This document shows, in pieces, positions 29,580 to 51,938 of a stretch of 64,000 nucleotides of DNA. The stretch's first letter is position 1; each line of letters opens with the position of its first letter. The translations under genes were made by a program, and so were the position numbers. The stretch is from a virus. Its lineage: Duplodnaviria > Caudoviricetes. Below the pieces are notes generated by a model, which was not told where the DNA came from, did not search any database, and saw only the letters and a program-made list of their open reading frames with translations. Where the stretch lies: the IMG/VR virus record IMGVR_UViG_3300009540_000001, positions 32,001-96,000 of that record; one strand, given 5' to 3'.

Positions 29580-30359
29580 TCACCGCCCTCGGCCACGACA
29601 GGCGCTCCAATGCACGCACCACTTCGGGTCACACTTCCAGGAGTCGATGGAGGTGCGGGGGAAAATTCCGCGCTTGATCAAGTCCACCGTCTCTTCGAAG
29701 TCTTCAATGAAGACCTTGACGTCCGCCGACAACCGTGTGGTCTCGAGACGGTGGTACGCGGGGGTCTTCGTCGAGACGAGGTTGTCGATCCTCGCGAACG
29801 TCGTCCCCTTGACTGCGGCGTAAAGCGTGAGTTGGGGCTCGAGCCGCACATCGCGTTCTGACCACTTCGCGGTCGAAGTCTTCAGGTCCACGACCGTGAC
29901 CTTCTCCCCCGCGCCATCCAAGAGGTCGATGTACCCGAGGGCCGGCACCGTGCCGACCTTGACGACGAACTCCTGCTCGATCTCGAGTGGCTCCAGGTGC
30001 GGGAGCGTCTGCGCGTGGTACAGCTTGTACAAGAGGATGGCGGAGTCTTTCGACGCCGTCGGGTCCTCTGGGGCGTCACCCTTCTCCGCGTCGTACGCGT
30101 CGCTCACGGCTGCGACGCCTTGCGCGAGGCTGAACTCCTGCCCCTCCTTCTTCGCACGCAGGGCCGACTCCGCCCCCGCGTGAATCGCGATGCCCTTGAC
30201 CATCGAGAGCGAGGGTGGGCCCTTGATCCCGTGGATGTACGTGAACTCGAACGCCTTGGCGCAGGCCTTGAACGCCGAGTACTTCGAGTAGGACATGGCC
30301 CCGCCCGGGATCCCGTCGTCGCGGATCTCCGGCGGGATCACGGGCAGAGTGCGTCTCAC
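29580..30359 (-). CDS. Second PD-(D/E)XK nuclease, Cas4/RecB-like
   Basis: SYSK...C, LGYIDL, VDLKTS, QLTLY, WKCDPKWC...C. Confidence 0.82.
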   Translation of the reverse strand: MRRTLPVIPPEIRDDGIPGGAMSYSKYSAFKACAKAFEFTYIHGIKGPPSLSMVKGIAIHAGAESALRAKKEGQEFSLAQGVAAVSDAYDAEKGDAPEDPTASKDSAILLYKLYHAQTLPHLEPLEIEQEFVVKVGTVPALGYIDLLDGAGEKVTVVDLKTSTAKWSERDVRLEPQLTLYAAVKGTTFARIDNLVSTKTPAYHRLETTRLSADVKVFIEDFEETVDLIKRGIFPRTSIDSWKCDPKWCVHWSACRGRGR

Positions 30360-30898
30360 AGCTCTCCGTCGTCAGGGATGTCGTCGCCGCCCACGCCACC
30401 CGCGCTGCCGCCCCCGCGAACCTGCGAGCGGGAGAGCACGTCGGCGAGAACAGCGCGGTCCTCCTCGGAGAGCTCCGAGGGGTCGATGATCACGCCCTTG
30501 GCGCGCGCCGGCTCGGGCTCGGAGAAGTTGCCGGGCGGCGGGGAGCTGCCCGCGAGCTCCGGGTCGAGGTAGCGCATCTTAGGCGCGGAGATGGTGGGCG
30601 ACGGCTCCCGAACGGGAACGAACATCGAGTTCTTGGGCGGGGGCTCGGCGCGGGGCTGAGCCGTGAACGCCGCTTTACGCGGTACAGAGGCGGCGGGCTC
30701 GGGCGCGGCACGTGCCGGCCGAGGCGCTTCGGGCGGCGGACCCATGTCCCCGTTGCGTACGACGCACTCGAGTTCCCCCAGGTCGTTGAACTTGAAAGGG
30801 AAGTTCTCCGTCTTCGCCTCGACTTGAAAGTTCTTCTTGGTCGACAGGTAGTACGCGCACGCCTTGATGATGTCGCCGTGCTCGAGTTCCAGTTTCAT
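30356..30898 (-). CDS. Hypothetical protein, Pro-rich C-half
   Basis: Likely start MKLELEH at 30898 (ATGA overlap with the helicase stop). Confidence 0.55.
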   Translation of the reverse strand: MKLELEHGDIIKACAYYLSTKKNFQVEAKTENFPFKFNDLGELECVVRNGDMGPPPEAPRPARAAPEPAASVPRKAAFTAQPRAEPPPKNSMFVPVREPSPTISAPKMRYLDPELAGSSPPPGNFSEPEPARAKGVIIDPSELSEEDRAVLADVLSRSQVRGGGSAGGVGGDDIPDDGEL

Positions 30899-32943
30899 TC
30901 GATAATCTCCACGGCCGCAACCGGCCTCGCTACGTTCGCAGCGTACTTGCACTTCTCTCGGAAAGGCAAGACACCTTTCTCGTTACATGGGGCTTGATTC
31001 TCACAGCCCGCGCAGGCGACTACCTCAAGCAACGTCAGCGACACTCGTTGCTTGAACGACAAGACCGACGCGACGCGGAGGTCAAGCCCCGGCGTCGACG
31101 TCGACGTGAGCAACCGGTAGACCGTCATGGCCCGGGTCTGCCCCGGGCGGTTGAAGCGGTCCATCGCCTGCTGGTACTGAAGCGGATCCCACGGCAGCGA
31201 GTAAAAGAGCATGTAGTTCGCTGCCGTGAGCGTGATGCCGATGCCCGTCTTGATCTGCCCCAGGTAGAGGTGGCAGTCCGGGTCCGTCTGGAACTTGTCG
31301 ACCAGGGGCCCGCTCTTGCTGGAGTTTGTCCCGTCGACGCGGACGTAGCCGATCTTGTGCTCCTTGGCGTAACGCTCGAGGTCGTCGAGCTCGGTGGTGA
31401 AGTTCGCCCACACGATCAGCTTGTGGGTGGGGTCGCCTTCGAGGACGGTCTCCGCGATGTCCGAGAACGCCTCGAGCTTGGGGTTCTCGACGTCGCGCAG
31501 CACCTTCGTCGGAGGTGCGACGGGGAAGATCGGGCACTTCTTCGTGTAGGGTCGTACCTTCTCCTCGACGCACTTGAGCATGTGCTCGCACGCGTCGCAC
31601 ACGGCGTAGTCAGCCCCGAGGTTCAAGAACCCCGAGAGCAGCTGAAGCATCTTGTTGACGCGCGCGGCGCCGTGCGGCAGGCGTTGCGTGACGCTCTCCG
31701 GGGCGTTGTCCGGATCGAGCTCTCCGGGGTGCAGGTACGCCATCATCGGCTCCATCGAGGAGCGCATCTCGAGCACCAGTTCGTTGTACCGCGCGCGCTG
31801 CATCGGCCCGAGCTCGAACGGGACGTCGACGATGACGCACGGGGGAAGGTCGAGGCAGTCCTTCTTCTTCATGCGGTGGGCGACCTGGTCTACCCGGGCG
31901 TTCACCTCATTCAGATGGCGGAAGCCGACGACGACGTGCTTGTTCTTCGGCGACATCACGAGATGCCGCTCGAGGAACTTCGGGTAGTTGCACGAGAGCA
32001 ACGAGGGCGAGAGGAACATCAGCTGCGCGAACAGCTTGCGCGGATCGTCGCCAGCTGTGCCTGTGAGGCAGATGCGCCGCGAGGCCTTGGCGGAGAGCTC
32101 GAGCGCCGACTTCGTCTGCTCCGATTCGAAGTTGCCGAGGTAGTGGCTCTCGTCCGCGACGATCGTGTCGTACGGGAGCTGATAGAGCGGATGGGACGCG
32201 GCGTGCCGGAACTCCTCGATGGCCGCCTCCGTCAGCAGCGGCAGCTTGTAACGCTCCCGCTGCGTGGGGCTCAGCTCGAGCTCGAGCGTCGCCTTCTGCG
32301 CCCGCTCTCGCTCCATGCGAAGGCGGGTGTAGGAGGCGAGAACGATGTCGGCGTCCTGGGCCAGGGCCTCGGCCTCGCGCGACCCGTCCCACACGACGAC
32401 GCTCCATTCCCCTCGCGTGCACCGTTCCGTTTCCTTCTGCCACGCAGCGAGGACGACGGGTGGCGCCAGGACCAGGGCCCGGCGAAACTGCCCCCGCAGG
32501 CGCAGCAGGCGAAAGGCGTCGATCGCGGTGCGGGTCTTGCCGGTGCCGGGTTCCCACAACAGGAAGGTGCGCCACCAGTTCACGATCCGGGAGATGCCGA
32601 GGCGCTGGTGGCTGTACGGCGTAAAGCCTGGGGTGAAGAAGCCTGCCGGGATGTCGAGGGGGACGTCTGCCTTGGCCTGGTACGCCGCCTCGGCAGCTTG
32701 CCAGTCGAGCTCGGCCTCGCGTAGAAGCTTCAGGTGCTCCAAGGCGCTCTCGTCCCACGCTGCGTTCGGGGCGAGCTTGCGAATGTCCTCGAAGGTCCAG
32801 CGACCGAACGGAAAGTACGCGGGAAATTGCCAGGCCCCGTCGGCGTAGACGCCGCCCCATGCGCGGGAGACCCCGTGCTCTTTGGGTGCGGGTAGCCGAA
32901 AGACAGGCGTAGACTTGCGAAGTAGGTCGCCGCTTACGTGCAT
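30895..32943 (-). CDS. SNF2-family (SF2) helicase
   Basis: YSHQ, WEPGTGKT, DESH, LTGT, GIGITLT, QAMDRFNRPGQ. Likely start near 32943; the longer ORF-track start is antisense to the portal. Confidence 0.88.
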   Translation of the reverse strand: MHVSGDLLRKSTPVFRLPAPKEHGVSRAWGGVYADGAWQFPAYFPFGRWTFEDIRKLAPNAAWDESALEHLKLLREAELDWQAAEAAYQAKADVPLDIPAGFFTPGFTPYSHQRLGISRIVNWWRTFLLWEPGTGKTRTAIDAFRLLRLRGQFRRALVLAPPVVLAAWQKETERCTRGEWSVVVWDGSREAEALAQDADIVLASYTRLRMERERAQKATLELELSPTQRERYKLPLLTEAAIEEFRHAASHPLYQLPYDTIVADESHYLGNFESEQTKSALELSAKASRRICLTGTAGDDPRKLFAQLMFLSPSLLSCNYPKFLERHLVMSPKNKHVVVGFRHLNEVNARVDQVAHRMKKKDCLDLPPCVIVDVPFELGPMQRARYNELVLEMRSSMEPMMAYLHPGELDPDNAPESVTQRLPHGAARVNKMLQLLSGFLNLGADYAVCDACEHMLKCVEEKVRPYTKKCPIFPVAPPTKVLRDVENPKLEAFSDIAETVLEGDPTHKLIVWANFTTELDDLERYAKEHKIGYVRVDGTNSSKSGPLVDKFQTDPDCHLYLGQIKTGIGITLTAANYMLFYSLPWDPLQYQQAMDRFNRPGQTRAMTVYRLLTSTSTPGLDLRVASVLSFKQRVSLTLLEVVACAGCENQAPCNEKGVLPFREKCKYAANVARPVAAVEIIE

Positions 32944-32964
32944 GGCGCCCTCCTGGGAGTAGAG

Positions 32965-34689
32965 ATGTTCGACGGTGACTTCAATCCGATGGGAGGACAG
33001 AACGGTCCGGGTGCCTCGCACCCGAACCCGATGTTCGACTACACGACCTCCTTTGTCCCGAGGAAGCTCAAGGACCTCTTCAAGTGGGCAGAGTACCTTG
33101 GGTTCAACTCCGCGCACATTTACGCGGTAGTTCGGAAGTTCGGGGAGTACCCGATCACCCGGTTCATCTACGAGTCGACCTCTGAAGAGGAGAAGGCTCG
33201 GCACAAGAAGCTCTTCGAGGAGGACGTCCACCTCAAGGGGTTCATGACGCTCGCGTCCTACGACGTGTGGCTCTACGGCAACTCCTTCGTCAGCGTGTAC
33301 GAGCCGATCAAGCGGGACCTCATGTGCCCCGAGGAGGGGTGCAAGAGCCGTGAGGACATCACGGCGGCGGTCTACGAGTTCAACCTCGAGCGCCTCGAGT
33401 TCAAGCACGACTGCCGCGAGTGCCAGCGCAAGGGCGTGATCTCCATCGTCAAGGACGTGAAGATCAAAGAGGCCGAGCGCATCCGGCTCATCCGGTGGGA
33501 CCCGAAGCTGATCGACATCGAGCACAACCCGATCACGGGCGAGTCGGTCTACTACTACCAGATCCCGCGCGACATCGTCTCGAAGGTGAGGGGCGGCAAC
33601 AAGACGCTCATCAACCACATGCCGATGGAGATCTTGCGCGCCATGCAGGCGAACAAGACCTTCAAGTTCGGGCCCAACGCGCTGTTCCACCTGAAGATGC
33701 CGGGGCCGGCCGGCGTGCAGTCGCAGTGGGGCTACCCGCCGATCACCTCGGCGATCAAGAACTTCCTGTTCGCCTCCATCCTGCGCAAGGCCAACGAGGC
33801 CATCGCGCTCGAGCACATCACGCCGTTCCGCGTGATCCACCCGCTCTCGGCGAGCGCGCAGGGCGACCCCATCTCGACGATCAACCTCGGCCAGTGGAAG
33901 GACGAGATGGTCCGCAACCTGCGGGAGTTCCGCAAGGACCCGCTGCGCATCCAGTTCTCCCCTGTGCCCATCGGCGTGCAGAACATCGGCGGCGAGGGCC
34001 GCGCGCTCCTGACGCTCGGGGAGCTCCAGGAAGCGGAGAAGGCGATCGTCCTCTCCCTCGGTGTGCCGATGGAGTTCCTCACCGGCGGCCTCGGACAGAC
34101 GCGCGGCGAGATCACGCTGCGGATGATCGAGAACCAGCTACAGACCCACATCGAGAACCTGAACGCCCTGGTGCGCTGGATCGAGCGCAAGGTCGCCGCG
34201 TACATGTCGTGGGACACCATCTCGATGCGGCTCGCCGACTTCAAGATGATCGACGACATGGAGTCGAAGCAACTCAAGCTCCAGCTGTGGCAGTCGCAGC
34301 TCATCTCGAACTCCACGGTCGCGGAGCTCGTAGACGTCGACCTCGATCACGAGCGCAAGCAGCGCCGCGAGGACACGCTCGCCGATACCCGCGCGCAGCA
34401 GAAGACGCAGATCGAGGTGCAGAAGCTCCAGCAGTCGATCTCGCAGCAGGCGCAGCAGCAGGCGATTCAGTCGCAGGGCGGCATGGCCTACGACCAGCAG
34501 CAGATCCGAGCGCAGGCGGACATCAAGGTGCAGGAGCTCGCGCAGCTCGACCCGGGCTCGCGCCGCAGCCGTATGGACGCGCTCAAGGGCGAGGACTACG
34601 TGATGTACTGCGTCGTGCGTGACATGCTCGAGCAAGTGCAGCAAGATCAGATGCAGGCGATGAAGGCTCAAGGGCAGCAGGCGGCGTGA
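32965..34689 (+). CDS. Portal protein
   Basis: DVWLYGNSF, LFHLK...WGYPPI and LGVPMEFL patterns typical of portal proteins; Gln-rich C-terminal coiled coil; first gene of the morphogenesis block. Confidence 0.72.
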   Translation: MFDGDFNPMGGQNGPGASHPNPMFDYTTSFVPRKLKDLFKWAEYLGFNSAHIYAVVRKFGEYPITRFIYESTSEEEKARHKKLFEEDVHLKGFMTLASYDVWLYGNSFVSVYEPIKRDLMCPEEGCKSREDITAAVYEFNLERLEFKHDCRECQRKGVISIVKDVKIKEAERIRLIRWDPKLIDIEHNPITGESVYYYQIPRDIVSKVRGGNKTLINHMPMEILRAMQANKTFKFGPNALFHLKMPGPAGVQSQWGYPPITSAIKNFLFASILRKANEAIALEHITPFRVIHPLSASAQGDPISTINLGQWKDEMVRNLREFRKDPLRIQFSPVPIGVQNIGGEGRALLTLGELQEAEKAIVLSLGVPMEFLTGGLGQTRGEITLRMIENQLQTHIENLNALVRWIERKVAAYMSWDTISMRLADFKMIDDMESKQLKLQLWQSQLISNSTVAELVDVDLDHERKQRREDTLADTRAQQKTQIEVQKLQQSISQQAQQQAIQSQGGMAYDQQQIRAQADIKVQELAQLDPGSRRSRMDALKGEDYVMYCVVRDMLEQVQQDQMQAMKAQGQQAA

Positions 34690-35111
34690 TGACAGAGCTG
34701 AGCAGAGAAGAAGAGCGGGAGATGATCATGCGCGGACCGCGCAACCCGCTCGAGAAACCCGCGAAGAAGACACCGGCGAAGGTTTGCTACGACGTCTTCA
34801 GTCTGTTCCGCCCGTGGCAGGCGTGCCGGCGGTGTCAGGAAGCCCTGACCTTGGGGGAGGTTCAACCTCCTCCCGAGGCTGGGGACCTCGCGTGCCCGCA
34901 TGTACGGCGTAAAGAGTTCGTCGACCTGTGTAACCGCATCCGCGCCGGAGGCCCGCAGGCCCCGACGCAGCTGCGGCTCGAGATCTGGTCGTCGCAGGCG
35001 ACGGGGGAGCGGTTCGCGGAGGTCCTGTGGGAGGAGCCTGCTCCCCAGGCCCAGGGCGCGCCGAGCGTCGCGGGCGCCGCCAAGCAAAAGAAGGTCGACC
35101 CAGAGCTGTAG
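34689..35111 (+). CDS. Hypothetical protein with CxxC...CxH
   Basis: Translationally coupled to the portal gene. Confidence 0.55.
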   Translation: MTELSREEEREMIMRGPRNPLEKPAKKTPAKVCYDVFSLFRPWQACRRCQEALTLGEVQPPPEAGDLACPHVRRKEFVDLCNRIRAGGPQAPTQLRLEIWSSQATGERFAEVLWEEPAPQAQGAPSVAGAAKQKKVDPEL

Positions 35112-35296
35112 CCGCGAACCCGGGGGCGACGTTCAGGTTCACACCCGACGCCGCCCCCGGCCAGTACTCATCACCACTCTGAGCTCTACGAGCGCAGAAC
35201 GTGGATGACGAACTTGTAGATCGCGCGAATCAGCAAGAGACACACCTCCTTTCCGTACGACCTTCTACCTGTATTTCCGCTAGACTTCGCACACCC

Positions 35297-38200
35297 ATGA
35301 GCGAAGTCACTCCCGTCCTCACGGACGCCGCCACGCTGCGCGCCAAGATTCACGAGAAGACGCAAGCCGCGCTGCGGTCGGTGTTCCCGCTCGACTTGAA
35401 GGGCCGCACGCTCGAGCTCCAGGACGTCAAGGTCCACGCGCAGGACTACAGCCCGAGCCAGCAGCGCCGCGCGCTGCTCACCGGCTCGAGTCTGTATGAG
35501 CCGGTGAAGGGCACCCTCGTGCTGAAAGACGGCGCGGGCAAGGTCGTCGACACGGCGAAGAACTTCACGCTCGCGCACGTGCCGTACCTGACGGAGCGGC
35601 ACACGCTCATCTCGGACGGCAACGAGTACCAGATGGCGAACCAGCTTCGCCGCAAGCCGGGCGTGTACACACAGCGCTCGGACAACGGCGAGCTCAAGAA
35701 CGTCTTCAACCTCGGTCGCGGGTCGAACTTCGACCTCGGGATGAACGAGGGCAAGGGGACGTTCCACATGACCTACGGGACGACCAACCTGCCGCTTTAC
35801 GCGGTGCTGCGTGGGATGGGCGCGTCGCACGAGGAGATCGCCGGGAAGTGGGGCGCGGGCGTCGCGAAGGCCAACGAAGCCGCGCACGGGCACCAGATCG
35901 AGAGCACGATCGCGAAGCTGTACGGCAAGCTCGAGCACCCGGCGCTGATCAAGCCCGGGGCGACGCACGAGGAGAAGCTGACGGCGGTCCACAAGCGCTA
36001 CGCGTTGTCGACGCTCGACCCGGAGGTCACGAAGCAGACGCTAGGCCACGGGCACAGCTCGGTCACGCCGACGGCGCTCCTCGACGCCTCGGCGAAGATG
36101 CTCCGCGTTCACAAGGGCGAAGACGTCGTCGACGACACCGACTCGCTCGCCTTCAAGACGTTCCACTCGATGGACGACTTCTTGGCGGAGCGCATTCGGC
36201 TGACGGCGCGCGCATGGGCCCCGAAGGCCCGCATGGCGCTCAACGGCAAGACGGAGATCCGCGAGGCCCTGAAGCCCGGGCCGTTCTCCTCGGCGATTCG
36301 GAAGTTCGTCACGACGTCGAACCTCGCGGCGGTTCCCCCGGGCATCAACCCCATGGAGCTGATCGACCACGCGGTGAAGGTGACGTCGCTCGGCGAAGGC
36401 GGCATCCCCTCGGACCGCGCGATCCCCTTCGACGCGCGCATGATCCACAACACGCACTTCGGGGCGCTCGATCCCGTGCGCACGCCCGAGAGCAATCACT
36501 CGGGCGTGGACATCCGCGCAACGATCGCCGCCCACCGCGACGACGCCGGCAACCTCTACACCGTCTTGCGCAACGTGAAGTCCAACAAGATGGAGTTCGT
36601 CCGCGCGGGCGATCAGCGCAAGTACGTCGTCGCCTTCCCCCACCAGCAGCTGAAGGGCGACGTCGACGCCTTCCGCGACGGCAAGCTCGAGAAGGTCGAC
36701 GCCTCTACGGTCACCCACCAGCTCGACCACATCAAGCACGCGTACTCGCCCGCGACGTCCATGGTGCCGTTCCTGCACTCGATGCAGGGCAACCGCGCCA
36801 TCATGGCCTCGAAGTTCGGGACGCAGGCGCTGCCGCTGCTCGAGCGCGAGGTACCGCTCGTGCAAGTGCGCTCGCACTTGGACAGCGGGGAGTCGTTCGA
36901 ACAGGTCTACGGGCACATGATCAACCCGACGGCGCCTGTGGCGGGGACGGTCAAGAAGGTCGACGGGGACTATGTGTGGATCGAACCGCACCGCGTAAAG
37001 AAGGCGGAGGATCGCCCTGTCCTCTATCAGAAGCGTGTCGGCCCGCACGCCTTCAACATCGAGATCGAGAAGGAGTTCCACGTTCGCGGGAACAAGTTCC
37101 CCTCGTCTTCGGACTACGGGCACCTCCCTGGGTACGTCGGGCCTGACGGCGACAGCCTCGACTTCTTTGTCGGGGATCGCCACGACGGGGTCCTTGCCGT
37201 CTACGACAAGCAAAAGAACTTCGACGGGAAGGGCTGGAAGACGACAGACAAGAAGTTCGTCGTCGGGATGAACCCCACCGAGTACGCGGCGTGGCAGAAG
37301 CACCCGGCGATGACGGCACACCCGCAAATCCGCTTCGCCAACGAGCGTCGCTTCAAAGACTGGGACGACCTGAAGTCGCACATCGACACCCACTACAAGC
37401 GTCCGGAAGGGCACGAGAAGGAAGCCGCCGAGAACCTGGTCAAGGTCCCCTACCAGACCCAGTTCCCCTTCCCCTCGAAGACCTCGCTTCACCACGACGT
37501 CATCGTCAAGCCAGGCGACAAGGTCGAGGCCGGGCAGCAGCTCGGCGAGTCGAACTACACCCGCAAGGGCACGCTCGCGCTCGGGAAGAACCTGCTCGTC
37601 GGCTACATGGCGTACCACGGCGTGAACTCCAACGACGCCATGGTGATCTCGGAGGGCGCGTCGAAGAAGCTCACCAGCGAGCACATGTACCGGGAGATTT
37701 ACCCGGTAAACGCGCGCATCGAGCTCAACACCGCGAAGCACAAGCTGTACTACGGCTCGAAGTACCAGCCGCAGCAGTACGCGCACCTCGACGCGGACGG
37801 CGTGGTCAAGAAGGGTTCGCGGGTCAACCCGAAGGACATCCTCGTCGCCGGATTGACGAAGCAGCAGGTGTCAGGGTCCGACGCCCTCGTGGGCCGCATC
37901 TCCAAGGCGCTGACGAAGCCGTACAAGGAGGTCGTGCTCGAGTGGACGCACGGCGGTCCCGGCGTCGTGGAGGACGTCGTCCGCACCGCGTCGCAGATCA
38001 CGGTGCTGATCAGCACGCAGGAGCGCATGCAGATCGGCGACAAGCTCGCCGGTCGCCACGCGAACAAGGGCGTCGTCTCGCGCATCGTCCCCGACCACGA
38101 GATGATCCGAGACGAGCAGGGCCGCCCCCTCGACGTGCTCATCACGAGCGCTGGCGTCATCAGCCGCGTGAACCCGAGTCAGATCCTCGAGACGTGCGCC

Positions 38201-40183
38201 GGCAAGGTCGCGGAGAAGACCGGCAAGCCGGTGATCTTCGACAACGCCGCCGGCGTCAACGCCGTGAAGTGGGTACGCGGCCTGATGAAGGAGCACGGCG
38301 TAAAGGACAAGGAGGTCGTCTTCGACCCGCTCACGAAGCGCCACATCACGGGCTCGGATGGGAAGGGAGTACTTGTAGGTAGACAGTATATCTACAAGCT
38401 CTTCAAGTCGACGGACACGAACTTCGCCGGGCACGGCGTGGGCCCGTACGACCTGAACGAACAGCCGCTGAAGACCGGCGGCGACGACAGCGCCAAGGGC
38501 CTCGGCAAGATGGAGTTCGACGCGTTGCTCGCGCACAACGCTCGCAACTTCCTCAACGAGGCTGCGACCGTGCGCGGCACCAAGAACGAGGAGTTCTGGA
38601 AGGCCGTGCAGCTGGGCCTGCCCATGCCCGCGCCGAAACCGTCGTTCGCGTTCAATAAGTTCGTCGGAATGCTCGAGGGTGCGGGCGTGCGCATCGACAA
38701 GCGCGGGAGCAAGTTCCACATCCTGCCGCTGACCGACAAGGACGTCACGAAGCGCTCGGCAGGGGCGATCGAGAACAACAAGACGCTCCAGGCGAAGGAC
38801 CTGAAGCCGGAGAAGGGCGGGCTGTTCGATCCCTCGCGCACGGGAGGGCCGCAAGGGACGCTGTACGCACACATCGACTTGCACGAGCCGATTCCCTCGC
38901 CCGTGTTCAAGGAGCCGGTGCGCCGCTTGCTCGGCATGACGGAGAAGCAGTTCGACAACGCGCTCGGCGAGCACGGCGGCGGGTGGTTTAAGACTCAGCT
39001 TGACGCCATCAGCCCCGACGCGAAGCTGAAAGACCTGCGCGCACGGATGACGAAGGCCAACGGCCCCGTCTTGAACGACCTCGTCAAGCAGGTGAAGTAC
39101 CTCGAGGCGCTGAAGACGCACAAGCTCAGCCCGAGCGAGGCGTACATCATCTCGAAGGTACCGGTGATCCCGCCGGTTTTCCGTCCCATTCTCCCAGGAG
39201 TCGCAGACCCCTCGCAGCTGATGGTCGCCGACGCCAACAAGCTGTACGCGCAGCTGATGGACGCAAACCACACGCTGAAGAACACTGCCTTGCCCAGTGA
39301 CTTGGGGAAGCATCGCAACGAAGTCTTCTCGACGGTCGAGGAGCTCTACGGCACGACGTTGCCGCGCGACCCGAAGCTTCAGCAGCAAAAGGTGAAGGGG
39401 TTCCTCTCCACCATCGCGGGCGTCGGCACGCCGAAGGGCGGGTTCTTCCAGCGCAAGCTGATGCGCAAGAACATGGACATCAGCGGGCGCGGCACAGCGG
39501 TGCCGGACTCGAACCTCGGCATGGACGAAGTCGGCATCCCTGAGAAGATGCTCTGGGGCATGCTCGACAAGCTCGTCGTCGCTCGACTCATGCGGAAGGG
39601 CTACCCCGCGCTCGACGCGCGCGAAATGGTCAAGAAGCAGACGGCGGCGGCGCGCGAGGCGCTCATGGAAGAGACGCGCGAGCGCCCCATGCTCATCAAC
39701 CGGGCCCCGACGCTGCACCGCTGGTCGATCGTGGCGGCGTACGCGAAGCCCGTGCAGGGCAAGACGATCCGCGTGAGCTCCTTCACGGAGAAGGGCCTCA
39801 ACCTCGACTACGACGGCGACACCTTGCAGGTGCACGCCCCGCTCACCCCGGGCTCGATCGAGGACGCCAAGAAGATGACGCTCTCGAACATGATCCTGAG
39901 CGATCAGCAGCGGAACAAGCTCCTCGCCTTTCCGCAGCACGAGGCGATCATCGGCTTCACCCTCGCAGCCAAGGGCGGCACAGGCACCGGCCCCGTCAAG
40001 AAATTCGCGACGCGCGACGAAGCCATGGCCGCCTGGCGCCGTGGAGAACTCCAGCTGAACGACGCGATCCAGGTGGCGAACGTGAAGCACGCGTACGAGG
40101 AAGAAGACGACGATTCCATCTCTCCCGACGTCGACGTATCCTTCTACCCGGCCGAACACGTCACCGGCGTGGGCCTGGAGTAA
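35297..40183 (+). CDS. rpoBC: Multisubunit RNA polymerase: beta fused to N-terminal half of beta'
   Basis: Beta motifs NQLRRKPGVY, HNTHFGALDPVRTPES, NRAIMASKFGTQA, LALGKN, GDKLAGRHANKG, SRVN. Beta' motifs KPEKGGLFD, VIPPVFRP, NRAPTLHR and catalytic NLDYDGD (39800-39820). Confidence 0.93.
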   Translation: MSEVTPVLTDAATLRAKIHEKTQAALRSVFPLDLKGRTLELQDVKVHAQDYSPSQQRRALLTGSSLYEPVKGTLVLKDGAGKVVDTAKNFTLAHVPYLTERHTLISDGNEYQMANQLRRKPGVYTQRSDNGELKNVFNLGRGSNFDLGMNEGKGTFHMTYGTTNLPLYAVLRGMGASHEEIAGKWGAGVAKANEAAHGHQIESTIAKLYGKLEHPALIKPGATHEEKLTAVHKRYALSTLDPEVTKQTLGHGHSSVTPTALLDASAKMLRVHKGEDVVDDTDSLAFKTFHSMDDFLAERIRLTARAWAPKARMALNGKTEIREALKPGPFSSAIRKFVTTSNLAAVPPGINPMELIDHAVKVTSLGEGGIPSDRAIPFDARMIHNTHFGALDPVRTPESNHSGVDIRATIAAHRDDAGNLYTVLRNVKSNKMEFVRAGDQRKYVVAFPHQQLKGDVDAFRDGKLEKVDASTVTHQLDHIKHAYSPATSMVPFLHSMQGNRAIMASKFGTQALPLLEREVPLVQVRSHLDSGESFEQVYGHMINPTAPVAGTVKKVDGDYVWIEPHRVKKAEDRPVLYQKRVGPHAFNIEIEKEFHVRGNKFPSSSDYGHLPGYVGPDGDSLDFFVGDRHDGVLAVYDKQKNFDGKGWKTTDKKFVVGMNPTEYAAWQKHPAMTAHPQIRFANERRFKDWDDLKSHIDTHYKRPEGHEKEAAENLVKVPYQTQFPFPSKTSLHHDVIVKPGDKVEAGQQLGESNYTRKGTLALGKNLLVGYMAYHGVNSNDAMVISEGASKKLTSEHMYREIYPVNARIELNTAKHKLYYGSKYQPQQYAHLDADGVVKKGSRVNPKDILVAGLTKQQVSGSDALVGRISKALTKPYKEVVLEWTHGGPGVVEDVVRTASQITVLISTQERMQIGDKLAGRHANKGVVSRIVPDHEMIRDEQGRPLDVLITSAGVISRVNPSQILETCAGKVAEKTGKPVIFDNAAGVNAVKWVRGLMKEHGVKDKEVVFDPLTKRHITGSDGKGVLVGRQYIYKLFKSTDTNFAGHGVGPYDLNEQPLKTGGDDSAKGLGKMEFDALLAHNARNFLNEAATVRGTKNEEFWKAVQLGLPMPAPKPSFAFNKFVGMLEGAGVRIDKRGSKFHILPLTDKDVTKRSAGAIENNKTLQAKDLKPEKGGLFDPSRTGGPQGTLYAHIDLHEPIPSPVFKEPVRRLLGMTEKQFDNALGEHGGGWFKTQLDAISPDAKLKDLRARMTKANGPVLNDLVKQVKYLEALKTHKLSPSEAYIISKVPVIPPVFRPILPGVADPSQLMVADANKLYAQLMDANHTLKNTALPSDLGKHRNEVFSTVEELYGTTLPRDPKLQQQKVKGFLSTIAGVGTPKGGFFQRKLMRKNMDISGRGTAVPDSNLGMDEVGIPEKMLWGMLDKLVVARLMRKGYPALDAREMVKKQTAAAREALMEETRERPMLINRAPTLHRWSIVAAYAKPVQGKTIRVSSFTEKGLNLDYDGDTLQVHAPLTPGSIEDAKKMTLSNMILSDQQRNKLLAFPQHEAIIGFTLAAKGGTGTGPVKKFATRDEAMAAWRRGELQLNDAIQVANVKHAYEEEDDDSISPDVDVSFYPAEHVTGVGLE

Positions 40184-40189
40184 CCGCCC

Positions 40190-40567
40190 GTGCCGAAGCT
40201 GTCCGACACCGTGAAGGGCGTAACCCAACGACAAGCAGCGTCGCTGCGGGGTTGGTACCGTAAGCCCGCCCCCGGCTTTTACGGGGTAAAGGACGGCTTC
40301 GACGCCGCCGCCAAAGGAGCGCACGTGAAGGTCTCGTCCGACAAGATCGCCGAGGCCCGCATGCGCGGCTACCTGCGCGTCCTCCAGAAGTACGCCCTCC
40401 TCGAGAAGTTCGACGAGCCGATCGAGGCCCTCGCGAAGCGCTTCGCGCAGAGCAACTTCGGCTACGGCGAGGACCCGAAGCCGCAGGCGAAGGGGCGGTT
40501 CCAGGGCTACGCCGGGGACCCGATGATGAGCCCGCCGAGCCCGGGTGCGACGCAGAGGAGCGTTTGA
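40190..40567 (+). CDS. Hypothetical protein between the RNAP genes
   Basis: 125-aa basic ORF containing DKIAE; coupled to the next gene. Confidence 0.55.
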   Translation: MPKLSDTVKGVTQRQAASLRGWYRKPAPGFYGVKDGFDAAAKGAHVKVSSDKIAEARMRGYLRVLQKYALLEKFDEPIEALAKRFAQSNFGYGEDPKPQAKGRFQGYAGDPMMSPPSPGATQRSV

Positions 40568-41232
40568 TGGGACCTGGAGCACAAGTCGCCCTGGCAATGG
40601 GCATTCCCGCCGCCGCCGCGTCGCTCGGGGCCCTCTACCTGATGACGCCGAAATACCTTCGGCGGCAGATCGGCGAAGAGTTCCGCGACCCGCGCCTCTA
40701 CTCGAACCTGCGCGGCGCCGTCTCGCTCGAAGACCGCGACGAACGCGTCCGTGCGCATCGACACCTCGGTAAGGGCGACGGAAGTGTGCTCGGGGCGATG
40801 GCGACGGGGTTCGGAAGGAAAGAGGCAGGCGTCAAGAAAGAAGCCATGATCAAAGTCGCATACTACAACTCCAAGGTCGCATCTCTCGGCGCCATCGCCG
40901 GCGCCGCTGGCCGAACGCTGATGCACAACCCTCGCGCTGCCGCGACCGTTGCAGGCGGTGCCGTCGGCGCGGGCGCTGGCGCCCTCGCAGCGGGGCCGGG
41001 GAACCGCCTCGCGGGAGCCGCAGGCGGCGCAGCGATCGGAGCAGGCGCGGGTAACCTCGCGACGCGCGGCGCTGCTGGGCGGGATGCCGTCGCAGGCGTA
41101 GGCCGTAGGTTGCGCGACGCCGCGCCCGCCAGGGCCATCCCCGCGCTCGGTAAGGCTGTGCCCAACGCGGTCGCTGCACCCGTCGCGGTTGCCGCACCCG
41201 CGTTCATGGGGCCGCCGGGCGCCGCACGCTGA
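40567..41232 (+). CDS. K-x-A / glycine-zipper putative head or ejection protein
   Basis: KKEA, IKVA and SKVA precede VAGGAVGAGAGALAAG...LAGAAGGAAIGAGAG. Confidence 0.55.
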   Translation: MGPGAQVALAMGIPAAAASLGALYLMTPKYLRRQIGEEFRDPRLYSNLRGAVSLEDRDERVRAHRHLGKGDGSVLGAMATGFGRKEAGVKKEAMIKVAYYNSKVASLGAIAGAAGRTLMHNPRAAATVAGGAVGAGAGALAAGPGNRLAGAAGGAAIGAGAGNLATRGAAGRDAVAGVGRRLRDAAPARAIPALGKAVPNAVAAPVAVAAPAFMGPPGAAR

Positions 41233-41235
41233 CCC

Positions 41236-43035
41236 ATGCAAACCTCCGTCGGCCAGTTCCTGATTAACGACGTCCTCCCCGACGGCTACAAGGTCAACGG
41301 CCCCATCAACAACAAGGGGCTGCACGACCACGTCGTCGGCCTCGCCAAGAGCGACCCGGCGAAGTACGTCCAAACGATCATGGCGCTCAAGCGGCGTGGC
41401 GACGAGATCGCCACGCATGAGGGCATCACCGTGGGGCTCGACGACATCGAGCCGGACTACGAAGCCCGCGACGCGATCATGAAGCCCGCCATCCTGAAGA
41501 TGAAAGGGCTCAAGACCGACAAGGCGAAGGAGACCCACATCCTCGAGACGCAAGCGGCGATGACGGCGCAGACGAAGCTCCACAAGGGCTCGATGACGCA
41601 CATGGCGCTCTCCGGCGCGCGCGGCAACATCGCGCAGCTGATGAAGATCGTCTCGACCCCGCTCGCCACGGTGCATCCGAAGCACGGCGTGTCGCACACG
41701 CTGTTCGATCGCTCGTACGCCGAAGGGCTCACCCCCGCGCAGTACTGGCTCGCAGGGCCTGAGATCCGCGCGAACGAAGTCGCGGCGCGCATCTCCGTGT
41801 CGGAGCCCGGCGAGATGGCGAAGGTCCTCGTCGCGAACACCGTGTCGCAGATCGTGACGCAGTCGGACTGCGGGACGATGAACGGCGTAAAGATGGGGGT
41901 CGACGACTCCCACACGCTGGATCGGCACACGCAGGAGACGCACGGTCTGCACAGGAATACGCTCGTGACGCCGCAACTCCTTCAGAACTTGAAGGCGCGC
42001 GGAGTAGGGGACCTTCTAGTAAGGTCTCCGATGACCTGCATCGCCCCTCGCGGCGTCTGTCAGATGTGCCAAGGCCACAACGAGAAGGGCCACCTGCACC
42101 CGATCGGCATGACCGTCGGCGTGCGCGCCGCGCAGGCCATGGCCGAGCCGCTGACCCAGATGGCGCTCTCGAGCCGCCACGGCACGCTGAGCGTCAAGGG
42201 AACGACGCAAGCCCCCACGGGGCTGAAGGGCGTGCGCCAGCTCTTGGATGTGCCTGCGGCGTTCAAGGGCGAAGCGACGCTCGCCCCCGAAGCGGGTGTC
42301 GTGGCGAAGATCGAGGTTGCGCCGCAAGGCGGGCACTTCATCACCGTGGGCTCGAAGAAGACGTACGCTCGGCCGGACTTCGCGCTGCGCGTGCGTGTCG
42401 GCGACCACGTCGAGTTCGGCGACGTCATGACCGACGGCGTCCCGCACCCCGCGAAGGTCGTAGCCGCCAAGGGCCTCGGCGCAGGGCGCAAGTACTTCGT
42501 CGACGCGATGCACAACCTGTACAAGGACGAAGGCGTCAACCTCGACAAGCGCCACCTGGAGCTCTTGGCGAAGTCGGAGATCAATCACGTCAGGTTGCTC
42601 GAGGCGGACCCGCACCACCCGGAGTTCCTCAAGGGAGACGTCATCAACTACAACTCCTTCCGGGACGCATATCACAAGGACTCGGAGAAGGTCCGCCTCT
42701 CCGACGCCGTAGGGCACCGCCTCGGGCAAGAGGTTCTGCATCACACCGTGGGCACGGTTCTCACGCCGTCCGTCCTCAAGGAGCTCGACAAACACGGGGT
42801 CCGTGAGGTAGCGGTTACCAAGGCCATGCCTCGGCTCGAGTTCGTGATGAAGCCGTTCGCGATGAACCCGCTGCTCGAGCAGGACTGGATGGCGCGCCTC
42901 GCCCACCGGTACCTGAAGTCCACAGTGCAAGAAGCAGCCCACTTCGGCGAAGTCGCAGACGTCCACGGGACCCACCCCGTCCCGGCGTACGCTTACGGTG
43001 CGGAGCTCCATCACGGGCCCGGAGGAATCTTCTGA
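41236..43035 (+). CDS. rpoC: RNA polymerase beta' C-terminal half
   Basis: SGARG, SYAEGL plus bridge helix, DCGT, VRSPMTC...GVCQMC zinc site, trigger loop AAQAMAEPLTQMALSSRH, GVNLDKRHLE. Confidence 0.92.
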   Translation: MQTSVGQFLINDVLPDGYKVNGPINNKGLHDHVVGLAKSDPAKYVQTIMALKRRGDEIATHEGITVGLDDIEPDYEARDAIMKPAILKMKGLKTDKAKETHILETQAAMTAQTKLHKGSMTHMALSGARGNIAQLMKIVSTPLATVHPKHGVSHTLFDRSYAEGLTPAQYWLAGPEIRANEVAARISVSEPGEMAKVLVANTVSQIVTQSDCGTMNGVKMGVDDSHTLDRHTQETHGLHRNTLVTPQLLQNLKARGVGDLLVRSPMTCIAPRGVCQMCQGHNEKGHLHPIGMTVGVRAAQAMAEPLTQMALSSRHGTLSVKGTTQAPTGLKGVRQLLDVPAAFKGEATLAPEAGVVAKIEVAPQGGHFITVGSKKTYARPDFALRVRVGDHVEFGDVMTDGVPHPAKVVAAKGLGAGRKYFVDAMHNLYKDEGVNLDKRHLELLAKSEINHVRLLEADPHHPEFLKGDVINYNSFRDAYHKDSEKVRLSDAVGHRLGQEVLHHTVGTVLTPSVLKELDKHGVREVAVTKAMPRLEFVMKPFAMNPLLEQDWMARLAHRYLKSTVQEAAHFGEVADVHGTHPVPAYAYGAELHHGPGGIF

Positions 43036-43772
43036 TGCCCCTCGACGAAGAGACGCTGTACGCCGTAAAGATCGCGGCTTGGGATCGCCGTGCGGCGCTT
43101 TACGGCGTAGAGAAGGTCGCCGTCGACTGGCGCGGCCTAGCGACGCGGGCCTTCGGCGAGAACAAAATTGCGCCGTCCAAACCCGGCTTCTGGAACAAAA
43201 CGAAGGCCTTTGGCAAGCACGTCGGCGAGTTCGGCCGCGAGATGATCCTCGGTAGCCCGATCACCGAGTACCAGAAGATGAAGGCCCGCATGGCGAAGCC
43301 CGGCGTCGGCCTCGGCCGAGCCCTCGCGGGCCATGCCAAGGACTTCTACATCACCCCCGACAGCAAGTTCTTCACCGCGCTCAACGTCGGTATGCCCGCG
43401 TTCGATCTCGGAAACACCCTGCTGCGCGGCGACCCCGATACACGTAAGGGCGACATCGCCCACGGCGTCGCGGGCATCGCAGCGGCGCCGTTTACCTCGC
43501 GCTTGGGGATCCCTGGGATGATGATCCAGCAGGCGGTACAGTCGGGGGCACAGTCGCTCGGACATCGGTTCGACAAGGCGAAGGACATGACGCCAACGGG
43601 GGGCCGCTCACAAGGACGGCAGTTGCTCGACCTCAGCGATCGTCCCCCTGTCGTCCCCTACCCCGCCCCGCTCGACCACCCTCTGATCACCGGCGCCCGC
43701 GAAGTCGCCAGGACCGCGCCGGCGCAACACGCCCTCAACGCCTTCAAAGCCTCCCAACCCACCTCGGGCTGA
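43035..43772 (+). CDS. K-x-A putative head protein
   Basis: VKIAA and EKVAV near the N-terminus; TGATG overlap with rpoC. Confidence 0.55.
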   Translation: MPLDEETLYAVKIAAWDRRAALYGVEKVAVDWRGLATRAFGENKIAPSKPGFWNKTKAFGKHVGEFGREMILGSPITEYQKMKARMAKPGVGLGRALAGHAKDFYITPDSKFFTALNVGMPAFDLGNTLLRGDPDTRKGDIAHGVAGIAAAPFTSRLGIPGMMIQQAVQSGAQSLGHRFDKAKDMTPTGGRSQGRQLLDLSDRPPVVPYPAPLDHPLITGAREVARTAPAQHALNAFKASQPTSG

Positions 43773-43806
43773 GTCCACCTAGACTTAGCCGCGCAAGGAG
43801 CAACAC

Positions 43807-45747
43807 GTGCAGACCAATCTGTTCACTCGTAACTACCTCAAGGGCGTGTCCGACGGTCTGATCGACCAGGGCGCCCTGGCCCCGTGGGGCGACGACAAGA
43901 TCGCGACCGAGGTCTTCGACAAGATCGCCAGCGATCACAACCTGCCCGCGATCCTGTCGGAGCAGCTCCCGGACGACGTGAACATCTCGCTCGGCCGGCA
44001 CCTCCAGCACTGGTCGAAGGTCGCGCACGAGAAGAACCTCGGCGCAGGCCCGACGGCCGTCGTGCAGGCGAAGCACGCCTCGCTCGCGTCGCGCGAGCTG
44101 CGCGCGGCCTCGAGCGCCGCGTACTACATGGACAAGGCCGCCGAAGACGGCGCGCTGAACGGCGTGGGCGAGAACACCCCCGAAGCCGCCACGGCGAACA
44201 ACGCCATCGCGCGCCTCGACCAGGCGAACCGCTCGACGTTCATGTACCTCGTCGGCATGGGCAACACGGACATGCCCGAGGGCGGCGTCGTGGGCCGGCA
44301 GATGGCGCACCCGATGGCGCCGAAGGGCCCGGCGATCAACAACTCGCTGACGGGGCTCGACAAGCAGGCCAGCGAGTCGGACTTCACCAAGGCCGCCAAC
44401 TTCATCGAGGCGCTCATGAAGCGCGGGGCGCAGCCCACGGTGAAGATGGTGCTCGCCGCCGCCAGCATGGCGGAAGGTGAGTACGACGGTCTCGAGCTGA
44501 TGACCGACATCGTTCGGCACGTGAAGACGGCCGAGGAGCTCGACGGCGCGCTCGACGACGTCAACAGCGCGACGGACGAGGCCTCGGCGCCTCCGAACCC
44601 GCAGCTCGTCGAGCTGATCGAGAAGGCGCTCGCGCACTACTTCGAGACGCACCCCGACATGGCCGGCGCGCACGGCGAGCCGGACGGCGACGAAGCTCCG
44701 GCGGACCCGGCGGGCGAAGGCGACGCGCCCCCGGCGCCGATGGAGGGAAAGACGGCGTCCACCATCAGCGGTCCGCGCAACCTGAAGGAAGTGCCCAAGG
44801 CCCTCGCCACGGGCGCGAAGCACATCGCCGGAAAGGCCAAAGACGAGCTCTCTCACGTTCCCAACTTCTTCAAGACGTTGAAGAACCGCAAGGATCTGAC
44901 CTCGGAGTTCGGCAAGGACATGGTCGATCGCACGCTCAAGGAGCACGGCAAGGGCGCGCTCCGCGTGGGTGGGGCGGCGGCGGGCGTTGGCGCGCTCGGC
45001 GCGGGCGCCGCGTATGCGGCGACGCGGGACAAGAAGAAGGAAGCGGCGTGGTACGACCCCGAGGTCCTCGGGACGGAAGCCCTCCACCGTGAAGGCCTCG
45101 CGCCGCTGGAGGTGGGCCCGGCCCTCGAGCACGCCGACGCGATGAAGCGCTACCTGGGCAAGGCCCCGCTGGGTGAGCGCGCGCTCGAAGGCGCCAAAGA
45201 CGTCGGGCACGCAGGCCTCGACAAGGTGAAGGCCCTCGGCGCGCTCATGAACCGCAACCGCCTCGCCACCGCCGGCATCGGCGCGGGCGTCCTCGGCCTC
45301 GGCGCGGGCGGCGCCTACCTTGCCTCGCGCGGCGGCTCGAAGGAAGCCCAGCTCCTCGCCGAGCTCTCCAAGGCCGCCACGGACGGCGCGCTGAACGACC
45401 CGGGGACCAACACCCCCGCCGAGGCCGCCGCCGTCAACGCAAACGCCCGGCTCGACATGCAGAACCGCAGGCCGGAAGAGTACCTGAACGGCGTGGGCGA
45501 CACCGCCATGCCGAACAAGGGCCATCTCGGCGAGAGCATGCCGGCGCCCAAGGGCCCGGCGAAGACCAACCCGCAGACGACGCCCGTGAAGGAAGCGTCG
45601 TTCGAAGCCTCGATCCGCTCGGCCGGCGAGTACTGGGGCCCCAAGCTCCCGGCTTCGATGCCGGTGAGCGAGAAGCGCGCGCACGTGATCGCGCTCGCGG
45701 GGATGCCCGAAGCGTACCGCGCGAACTACGTGCGGAACCTCGGCTAA
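43807..45747 (+). CDS. K-x-A-rich putative internal head protein with duplicated domain
   Basis: More than 10 K-x-A sites; duplicated KAA.DGALN...NTP..A...NA.ARLD..NR module; two Gly-rich hydrophobic segments; AAGGAG SD. Confidence 0.65.
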   Translation: MQTNLFTRNYLKGVSDGLIDQGALAPWGDDKIATEVFDKIASDHNLPAILSEQLPDDVNISLGRHLQHWSKVAHEKNLGAGPTAVVQAKHASLASRELRAASSAAYYMDKAAEDGALNGVGENTPEAATANNAIARLDQANRSTFMYLVGMGNTDMPEGGVVGRQMAHPMAPKGPAINNSLTGLDKQASESDFTKAANFIEALMKRGAQPTVKMVLAAASMAEGEYDGLELMTDIVRHVKTAEELDGALDDVNSATDEASAPPNPQLVELIEKALAHYFETHPDMAGAHGEPDGDEAPADPAGEGDAPPAPMEGKTASTISGPRNLKEVPKALATGAKHIAGKAKDELSHVPNFFKTLKNRKDLTSEFGKDMVDRTLKEHGKGALRVGGAAAGVGALGAGAAYAATRDKKKEAAWYDPEVLGTEALHREGLAPLEVGPALEHADAMKRYLGKAPLGERALEGAKDVGHAGLDKVKALGALMNRNRLATAGIGAGVLGLGAGGAYLASRGGSKEAQLLAELSKAATDGALNDPGTNTPAEAAAVNANARLDMQNRRPEEYLNGVGDTAMPNKGHLGESMPAPKGPAKTNPQTTPVKEASFEASIRSAGEYWGPKLPASMPVSEKRAHVIALAGMPEAYRANYVRNLG

Positions 45748-45768
45748 TCCTGACGGATTCGTAGCGAC

Positions 45769-45808
45769 GAAGGCTCGGAGAGGAAACTCTCCGGGCCTTC
45801 TCTCTTTT
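45769..45808 (+). terminator. Intrinsic terminator
   Basis: GAAGGCTCGGAGAG-GAAA-CTCTCCGGGCCTTC followed by TCTCTTTT. Confidence 0.75.
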
Positions 45809-45829
45809 ACGCTGTTCCCTTCTTTCGCT

Positions 45830-45835
45830 TACACT
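45830..45835 (+). promoter_or_regulatory. Candidate -10 element (TACACT) 6 nt before ATG; representative of a recurring set
   Basis: TAnnnT also sits 5-6 nt before starts at 48443, 52816, 58801 and 17337-17342 (minus strand). Confidence 0.5.
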
Positions 45836-45841
45836 TCGTGT

Positions 45842-48049: not shown

Positions 48050-48073
48050 CCCGAGCAGCCGCCGCCCACGGCC

Positions 48074-48445: not shown

Positions 48446-48454
48446 GCTTCCTTC

Positions 48455-49159: not shown

Positions 49160-49182
49160 CCCACCTACCTTTAGGCCGACGC

Positions 49183-51937: not shown

Positions 51938-51938
51938 G

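Follow-up and report, generated by a model that had tools for sequence, protein, structure and literature searches.

An RNA polymerase (RNAP) that is carried in the phage particle and delivered for early transcription is known from the crAss-like phage phi14:2 (gp66) and from phage N4 (vRNAP). The gp66 protein is a single chain akin to the RNAi-type and YonO-type two-barrel enzymes, with no detectable similarity to beta/beta', and the N4 vRNAP is a T7-like single-subunit enzyme; what they would share with the system described here is the concept of a particle-carried RNAP. Among cellular RNAPs, the large subunits are either fused or split where they depart from the usual layout, and alpha, omega and the zinc-binding domain are retained. 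Here we analyse two RNAP genes found within a stretch of 64,000 nucleotides (hereafter the window) that corresponds to bases 32001-96000 of the 172,374-bp IMG/VR record IMGVR_UViG_3300009540_000001, an uncultured Caudoviricetes phage from activated sludge which, by its homologies, is a distant relative of Salmonella phage Arash. The first gene (35297-40183, plus strand) encodes the beta subunit fused to the N-terminal part of beta' (beta::beta'N), and the second (41236-43035, plus strand) encodes the rest of beta' (beta'C). The join is of the same kind as the end-to-end union of the beta C-terminus and the beta' N-terminus in Helicobacter and Wolbachia, and the split falls in the same inter-domain region as that of the cyanobacterial rpoC1/rpoC2 genes, but here fusion and split occur together, and single-chain full fusions are found only in other members of this phage family (e.g., P0048).

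The RNAPs of phages phiKZ and AR9 are multisubunit two-barrel enzymes without alpha or omega, with beta' split after the double-psi beta-barrel (DPBB) and with one set packaged in the virion (PMC7598289). The enzyme studied here resembles them in being a phage-encoded two-barrel RNAP, in having beta' split after the DPBB, and in that no alpha or omega homologue was found. However, in phiKZ and AR9 the beta subunit is split too, giving 4-5 or more polypeptides, whereas here it is intact and fused to beta'N; their genomes contain two paralogous sets, whereas here there is one; they have no sigma homologues, whereas this phage has sigma70-family genes; and their sequences are too diverged for trees, whereas here the similarity to the bacterial enzymes is plain. 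In reviews on the RNAPs of jumbo phages, the phiKZ/AR9 type is the only one described, and phages that encode an RNAP are said to be without sigma factors (PMC7598289, PMC7824862, PMC13282480). The moraphages (PMC12619734) were also considered for comparison and discarded, since those phages have no RNAP.

The closest deposited phages retrieved by tblastn were Salmonella phage Arash and the Vibrio phages D69, D181, and D148, with 34-35% identity over 82-87% of the fusion (E values of 1e-152 to 1e-157). Arash gp206 and gp216 (OQ632216) and the genes of D69, D148, and D181 show the same beta::beta'N plus ~600-amino acid (aa) beta'C arrangement, the same order of portal, small open reading frame (ORF) and fusion, sigma genes nearby, and a deleted beta' zinc-binding domain. 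They differ in lacking the pyrophosphatase-fold insert and the acidic tail that are described below, and in host and GC content; moreover, nine genes, some of them on the opposite strand, separate the RNAP genes of Arash, whereas two small ORFs do so here. In the Arash paper, these genes are called plain beta and beta', and no word beginning with "fus" appears in the text (PMC10585845).

RNAP genes amid structural genes are also found in tailed phages from metagenomes whose beta and beta' subunits, detected with hidden Markov models (HMMs) of COG0085 and COG0086 and named mReC, are bacterial-like and deep-branching (Weinheimer and Aylward, 2020; PMC7481178). Among the listed mReC pairs, beta (999-1563 aa) and beta' (902-1370 aa) are separate, there are often two sets per contig, and the phages are T4-like with gp23-type capsid matches; a fusion or split of the mReC genes is not mentioned in that study (PMC7481178). 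Separate full-length beta and beta' genes, of other lengths, thus contrast with the fused gene of this phage, although some mReC pairs of 1361-1386 plus ~1000 aa could, by a comparison of listed lengths only, belong to the Arash-like family. The sample identifiers of our family loci were not found among the mReC rows listed, and a PF07068 capsid search gave no match, the positive controls being likewise undetected. Our literature searches retrieved no description of a fused-and-split architecture, the papers naming the genes merely beta and beta'. As shown below, the layout is widespread in metagenomes, but it has hardly been described.

The fusion gene lies in a stop-free ORF (35201-40183, plus strand) whose start was set at ATG 35297 by alignment with relatives and by the database gene call P0155 (1628 aa), yielding a protein of 1628 aa. 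Pfam domains Rpb2_2, Rpb2_3, and Rpb2_6 (1.8e-46) are followed on the same chain by Rpb1_1 and Rpb1_2 (3.1e-17). Alignment with the relatives and with Salmonella rpoB and rpoC places beta up to ~38701 and the junction (...GVRIDK/RGSKFHILP...) at ~38702, where the GVRIDK side corresponds to the end of RpoB and what follows can be aligned to RpoC starting near residue 23. The beta'N part is equivalent to E. coli beta' ~23-553 minus the zinc-binding domain; in fact, all the aligned family members lack beta' residues ~5-22 and the entire zinc-binding domain (E. coli ~68-100). Alignment to Salmonella beta' is possible in the lid, the rudder region, and the clamp helices. The catalytic NLDYDGD sequence (39800-39820, plus strand) is the DxDGD Mg-binding loop of the beta' DPBB, and across the family N-[LA]-D-[YF]-DGD is kept, with D-[YF]-DGD invariant. 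The lysine motif of the beta DPBB (GDK..G.H.NKG) is also present, as GDKLAGRHANKG aligns to E. coli beta 1063-1074. A flap-tip-like helix of beta is retained and constitutes, together with the beta' clamp helices, the sigma docking elements. In rifampicin cluster I, the residues equivalent to E. coli Q513, F514, D516, R529, and S531 are A, V, P, K, and T, with H526 unchanged, and these replacements suggest that the enzyme is probably rifampicin-insensitive.

The part of the fusion chain equivalent to beta' reaches about residue 553 of the E. coli subunit, and the chain finishes with VKHA followed by an acidic C-terminal tail of 29 aa (40094-40180, plus strand) that contains 10 acidic and no basic residues and is common to the closest relatives only. 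The initial annotation, made from the letters of the window, had proposed that beta runs straight into beta' at about 38700, that NLDYDGD lies inside the large chain, and that this chain ends with KHA plus an acidic tail, and the three proposals agree with the alignment, the Pfam domains, and the coordinates given here. In three relatives, L005 (10097-15700), L015, and L013, the fusion gene bears insertions of 340-360 aa; that of L005 is located between a PE of beta and the next S, has Cys as its first residue and ...GN as its last ones, and resembles a classical intein placed at a conserved site of beta.

The beta'C gene encodes a protein of 599 aa that comprises the F-loop, the bridge helix, the trigger loop, and the C-terminal clamp/jaw region, with Pfam domains Rpb1_4 and Rpb1_5. 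Its N-terminus, MQTSVGQ, is the aligned counterpart of TTVGR in RpoC (about residue 571), and over the bridge helix and trigger loop P0002 residues 117-319 align to E. coli beta' 719-940. The family consensus of beta'C includes SGARG, EGL.P.EYW, GAR.G, and EPL.Q..L..KH. Hence, the ORFs, Pfam and the alignment bear out the separate bridge-helix and trigger-loop gene that had been read as starting at the TTVGR equivalent (QTSVGQ), two small ORFs downstream of the fusion. According to the alignment, the split is located just past the beta' DPBB, and the beta' subunits of the cyanobacterial and phiKZ-like RNAPs are split in the same region, after the DPBB (PMC7598289). Therefore, of the distinct fusion/split pattern that had been claimed for this phage, the combination of beta::beta'N with a separate beta'C is confirmed, but the position of the split is not itself new. 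The two genes are separated by a small ORF of 125 aa with four K-x-A motifs (40190-40567, plus strand), found in the near subclade only, and by an Ala/Gly-rich ORF of 222 aa (40564-41232, plus strand) that is not conserved according to the comparison with relatives. The former has tblastn matches in the relatives L005 (45%), L033, and L035, and no family match was obtained for it in family searches.

A full HMMER scan with beta'C over 1.84 billion representatives produced 4270 matches with E<=1e-3, of which 1097 reached E<=1e-30 and the best 150 were all below 1e-74. All the solved bacterial beta' subunits scored between 88 and 124 bits and all the solved bacterial beta subunits between 159 and 226 bits, with no phylum standing out. 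The scores thus portray a coherent lineage with many members, about as far from one sampled bacterium as from another. The initial annotation had spoken of a virion-packaged RNAP of a distinct lineage; a lineage distinct from phiKZ/AR9 and from cellular rpoBC is what the family E values below 1e-74 against 88-124 bits for the bacterial proteins support, but it was not previously unknown, given the Arash publication of 2023 and the Vibrio records. The order SNF2 helicase, portal, small ORF, fusion, 1-9 variable ORFs, beta'C, and virion-protein genes is shared by Arash, by D69, D148, and D181, and by more than 20 metagenomic contigs, beta'C being 1-5 kb downstream of the fusion within the family. 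All 12 IMG/VR relatives inspected, several of 187-211 kb, contain a fused ORF of 1467-1899 aa and then a beta'C of ~600 aa.

To describe the diversity of the family, we took a census of 130 representatives covering at least 75% of beta'C. Half of them (65/130) are plain ~600-aa beta'C proteins, 22 have large inserts, which were LAGLIDADG inteins where checked, and 21 carry unrelated C-terminal extensions of 400-800 aa. The extensions of the ~1000-aa beta'C relatives (P0009 and similar) had no BLAST counterpart in the window or in Arash. The 13 complete single-chain beta::beta' proteins (2004-2876 aa) include P0048 (2077 aa), which is 36% identical to the fusion and reads through the split point. 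In a FastTree tree of the family, weakly rooted with Salmonella RpoC as sole outgroup, the single-chain forms are located mostly in a basal grade and the clade of the window phage is entirely split, suggesting that the lineage was already fused when the split arose. Between the two RNAP genes, different relatives have from one to nine unrelated genes, including opposite-strand genes in Arash, a pattern that fits gene fission by insertion. In two relatives, a ferritin-like gene is located between the RNAP genes (L033, 11714-12343; L034, 10934-11749).

The genome has a single Rpb2_6 locus, i.e., one RNAP set. As the initial annotation had noted for alpha, no such subunit is visible in the window, and this holds for the complete 172-kb genome, since neither PF01000 nor PF01193 gave a match at E<=1; omega (PF01192) was likewise without a match at E<=1 in the complete genome, while the controls were detected in 14 of 14 genomes for both subunits. 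Two sigma70-family genes are present. The one in the window (27191-27976, plus strand) encodes a factor of 261 aa homologous to Arash gp196 and to the sigma factor of Vibrio phage D69, with tblastn matches in Arash, D69, and L004; its Sigma70_r2 match (8.8e-09) is above the cut-off and the only r2 match in the genome, and region 1.2 is matched at 0.0036. The second gene, outside the window (genome positions 27044-27745), encodes a protein 31% identical to Arash gp10, with region 3 at the Pfam cut-off. The sigma70-family genes, the uniqueness of the RNAP set in the genome and the existence of single-chain relatives had escaped the initial annotation.

The location of the RNAP genes between portal and head genes, which had been noticed previously, is supported by homology to Arash gp204 and gp226. 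The portal gene (32965-34689, plus strand) encodes a protein with 32% identity over 538 aa to the Arash portal gp204 (E 3e-97), and the product of the major capsid protein gene (57850-58770, plus strand) is 40% identical to Arash gp226 (E 3e-61). Pfam and PHROGs searches of 20 neighboring ORFs retrieved almost nothing, and no structural gene was matched, including the portal; the portal and capsid assignments therefore rest on the homology to Arash, and with them it is justified to place the RNAP genes inside the head block. In the virion mass spectrometry of Arash, Gp206 has the highest count with 3516 spectra, 128 unique peptides and 100% coverage, Gp216 has 1210 spectra, the sigma factor Gp10 has 467, and gp218 has 1149 (PMC10585845). 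By our own arithmetic on those data, this represents 2.3 spectra per residue for Gp206, 2.0 for Gp216, and 2.0 for Gp10, whereas the portal has 1.5 and the capsid protein 4.3. Taken together with the gene order, the RNAP is likely packaged in the virion.

We consider it rather probable that the two genes provide the complete catalytic core of the sole RNAP of the phage, and that the tether, the use of sigma, the packaging and the delivery belong to one joint explanation. The enzyme is a bacterial-type two-barrel RNAP made of two chains, the first contributing beta and beta'N (clamp, clamp helices, and DxDGD barrel) and the second beta'C (F-loop, bridge helix, and trigger loop). The covalent tether between beta and beta' would substitute for the alpha-dimer assembly platform. 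The flap-tip helix and the beta' clamp helices on which sigma docks are retained, and promoters would be recognized through the own sigma70-family factors of the phage, and not through a non-sigma factor of the phiKZ type. The RNAP would be synthesized with the head proteins, packaged in the capsid and ejected with the DNA, and would then start a host-independent early transcription, probably insensitive to rifampicin, and, being the only RNAP of the phage, would also be used in the later phases, with the second sigma. In this way, the phage would probably bring its own transcription enzyme into the host.

The motifs are recognizably bacterial, as had been pointed out from the sequence and as the Pfam Rpb domains and the alignment to Salmonella rpoB and rpoC corroborate, and this bacterial look is the sole pointer to an assembly chimera or a recent capture of a host rpoBC, an explanation to which we give practically no weight. 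The record is rated 100% complete and has direct terminal repeats, for which we measured a length of 123 bp. In Logan assemblies of two activated-sludge runs, window positions 30000-48000 are contained in one contig each (134 and 135 kb), with a flat depth of 29x and 26x and two base differences; both runs are possibly the source samples, yet they were assembled separately. A third sequencing run contains identical pieces at low depth, and there was no RNA data set among the runs listed. The GC content is 63-69% across the whole window, and the GC content at third codon positions (GC3), 0.91 in the fusion gene and 0.89 in the beta'C gene, matches that of the neighboring genes. Moreover, the identity to Salmonella RpoB and RpoC is merely 24-30%. 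The initial annotation had named a chimera with a bacterial rpoBC as the finding that would overturn it, and this is ruled out by the terminal repeats, the two independent assemblies and the recurrence of the layout in cultured phages. It is also very improbable that the protein is an exapted head structural protein that has lost its transcription activity. The very high apparent abundance of the orthologue in Arash particles would agree with this possibility, and so would the diverged bridge helix in the subclade of the phage, where PEIRAN replaces the GAR.G of the family consensus, a departure that also counts against the explanation we prefer. However, more than 130 diverse representatives retain DxDGD, the GDK...NKG lysines of beta, the EP.TQ...H of the trigger loop, and the F-loop SGARG, which fits purifying selection on catalysis.

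A third explanation, improbable but less so than the former ones, is a hybrid and non-autonomous enzyme in which the phage chains assemble on the host alpha dimer, with or without omega. The sequence is plainly of bacterial type, no phage alpha was found, and the beta::beta' fusions of Helicobacter still use alpha. On the other hand, a packaged hybrid would require alpha in the capsid, and the enzyme is at about equal distance from every solved bacterial RNAP while the hosts are Salmonella, Vibrio, and high-GC sludge bacteria, making a conserved docking to host alpha less likely; furthermore, the phiKZ and AR9 RNAPs function without alpha or omega (PMC7598289). The main rival is an unpackaged polymerase made after infection for middle or late genes, whose adjacency to the portal would reflect co-expression or history and whose Arash signal would be carry-over; we regard it as unlikely, although it deserves more credit than the hybrid. 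Among the 116 proteins of the Arash preparation there are ribonucleotide reductases, a primase and a kinase, which are hardly structural, and the authors themselves allow for carry-over (PMC10585845). In addition, a host-independent phage with a single RNAP set in its genome would need this enzyme for the late phases too. Against this rival, the Arash orthologues have the top spectral count in those data and exceed the portal per residue, sigma was co-detected in the particles, and in every relative the genes form a tight block with the portal and the homologues of virion proteins. Several other points weigh against a packaged and autonomous RNAP: packaging in this phage is deduced from Arash orthologues that are only 34% identical and from conserved synteny; a very diverged alpha-like subunit may escape HMM searches; the sigma of the window is the counterpart of gp196, which is absent from the portion of the Arash virion table considered here, and the gp10-like sigma gene is located outside the window; and the phage sigmas could instead redirect the host RNAP. 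The packaging that had been proposed from the sequence is thus backed by the top virion spectra of the Arash orthologues, but through a distant proxy and a preparation that may be impure.

A surface loop of beta contains an insert of ~140 aa with the fold of a family-I inorganic pyrophosphatase (37007-37426, plus strand), bracketed by VKKA/ED and EKEA/AE. It is present in the relatives L004 and L006 and absent from Arash and the Vibrio phages, and we found it in 28 further fused RNAPs, several of which have precomputed matches to InPase PF18823 and one to PF00719. A profile of ten inserts has as its closest sequence match in PDB the residues 635-720 of the portal gp19 from Pseudomonas phage Pa193 (E 1e-11), and it also matches more than 25 family-I pyrophosphatases of PDB (best 1.6e-4). 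The AlphaFold2 (AF2) model of the insert (mean predicted local distance difference test, pLDDT, 79.7) has only pyrophosphatases as top Foldseek matches, with E values from 1e-3 and template modeling (TM) scores of 0.35-0.42. The insert is shorter than the family I enzymes but shares their fold and motifs, keeping Y-G...D-G-D-x-x-D (D-G-D-S-L-D is present) and D-x-K. Equivalents of E20, K29, Y55, D65, D67, D70, D102, and K104 are visible by eye, but for E. coli E31, R43, and Y141/K142 no counterpart was identified in the subclade of the phage. The in-line domain on beta may, in this subclade, remove pyrophosphate (PPi), the product of the polymerase. To our knowledge, there is no earlier case of a product-removing domain built into an RNAP, and this insert would be the first one, if this function is true. 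One relative has two tandem pyrophosphatase-like modules in beta (L033:8212-9039). In the structure of the Pa193 portal gp19 (PDB 9b41 chain L), the modeled residues are 94-528 and the matching residues 635-720 fall outside them (PMC11456595); a pyrophosphatase-like domain would therefore hang on that portal too, presumably inside the capsid.

K-x-A motifs are depleted in the RNAP chains (7 versus 11.8 expected in the fusion and 1 versus 3.9 expected in beta'C), in the portal, and in the capsid protein. Many of the ORFs that lie between beta'C and the capsid gene (43807-61665) have 2 to 5 times as many of them as their composition predicts; in the ORF 55824-56372, nine of the 11 Lys residues are in K-x-A. 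Three of the seven sites in the fusion chain are VKKA/ED and EKEA/AE at the borders of the insert and VKHA/YEEEDDD before the tail, and the closest relative, L005, has EKRA/EDEE ahead of a similar tail. This placement fits the idea that they are sites of a maturation protease.

A broader proposal, which we make tentatively and with more doubt than conviction, is that this is a third independent kind of virion-delivered multisubunit RNAP, with a minimal core of one or two chains without alpha and omega, phage-encoded and partly co-packaged sigma70-type factors, a large family of about a thousand 50%-identity clusters, an in-line pyrophosphatase-fold domain in one subclade, and a head maturation protease that trims or cuts the packaged RNAP at the K-x-A borders in a phiKZ-like manner. 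If so, it would be the simplest natural bacterial-type RNAP known with sigma-dependent initiation, consisting of two chains (one in some relatives) and without alpha, omega or zinc-binding domain. It would offer a model for core assembly without the universal alpha platform, for the minimal needs of sigma docking, and for the packaging and tail delivery of an enzyme of ~250 kDa. The family would also bridge the distance from the RNAPs of cells to those of phiKZ and crAss, which are extremely diverged, with a bearing on the arguments about the origin of viral RNAPs, and its cultured members on Salmonella and Vibrio hosts make these ideas directly testable.

Upstream of the RNAP genes and divergent from the portal, there is a gene encoding an SNF2-family helicase of 682 aa (30895-32943, minus strand), matched by tblastn with Arash gp198 (E 3e-22). 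It has a GC3 of 0.87 and an AGGAGG ahead of its ATG at 32943, and genes with SNF2-rel_dom and Helicase_C domains are found at the same place in relatives, the helicase being divergent from the portal in all of them; the plus-strand ORF 30994-32724 that overlaps it was discarded as spurious. This gene recalls the SNF2 helicase that is linked to the RNAP genes in phiKZ-like phages (PMC7824862). The portal gene, whose position is the same in all relatives, likely starts at ATG 32965, the longest ORF starting at 32938. Its stop codon is overlapped by a small conserved ORF of 141 aa (34686-35111, plus strand), kept in position and sequence in L004, L005, L033, L034, and L035. This lineage-wide ORF has gained a CxxC...CPH zinc-knuckle-like insertion in the subclade of the phage, beside a beta' that lacks its own zinc-binding domain. 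Foldseek and VIA-wide searches with its AF2 model (pLDDT 75) gave only noise-level matches (best Z 5.6), with no match to an alpha-, omega-, or Rpb11-like fold, a result that is no evidence of absence.

The stop codon of beta'C overlaps the next ORF in an ATGA sequence. Two conserved ORFs of 245 and 646 aa (43035-45747, plus strand), with tblastn matches in L005, L033, L034, and L035, complete the co-directional block, and a predicted terminator-like hairpin with a 14-bp stem and a T-rich run (45769-45800, plus strand), found by a consensus scan, closes this block from the portal through the RNAP genes to the 646-aa ORF. Further downstream there are homologues of the Arash virion proteins gp218 (45842-48049, plus strand; identified by tblastn), gp220, and gp222. 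The homologue of the Arash "DNA helicase" gp217 was considered as a member of the module and rejected, as it is far from the RNAP genes in the genome of the phage.

A scan of positions 30000-48500 for sigma70-consensus promoters found 0 sites versus 1.3 expected. The 11-mer TAC-N3-GTAAA occurs 35 times in the whole window, counting both strands, versus 0.12 expected from shuffles, and is mostly located within genes (e.g., at 3522, 32615, 34903, 37698, 40278, 43059, and 52784). Three copies are full TTTAC-N3-GTAAA palindromes (16347, 37698, and 40278), two of which are located within the RNAP fusion gene or immediately behind it. Some copies precede a gene start by 25-33 bp (3547 and 52827), although this position is not consistent. 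The element could be a binding site or a promoter element. The 992-aa gp222 homologue (52827-55805, plus strand) contains an intein at residues ~184-549, with a LAGLIDADG_3 match (1.2e-06) and weak Hint and Intein_splicing matches. Finally, the large-terminase (TerL) homologue of 725 aa (14459-16636, plus strand) matches the TerL of Arash in two blocks with ~430 bp between them, suggesting that an intein, an additional domain or the like is inserted there.

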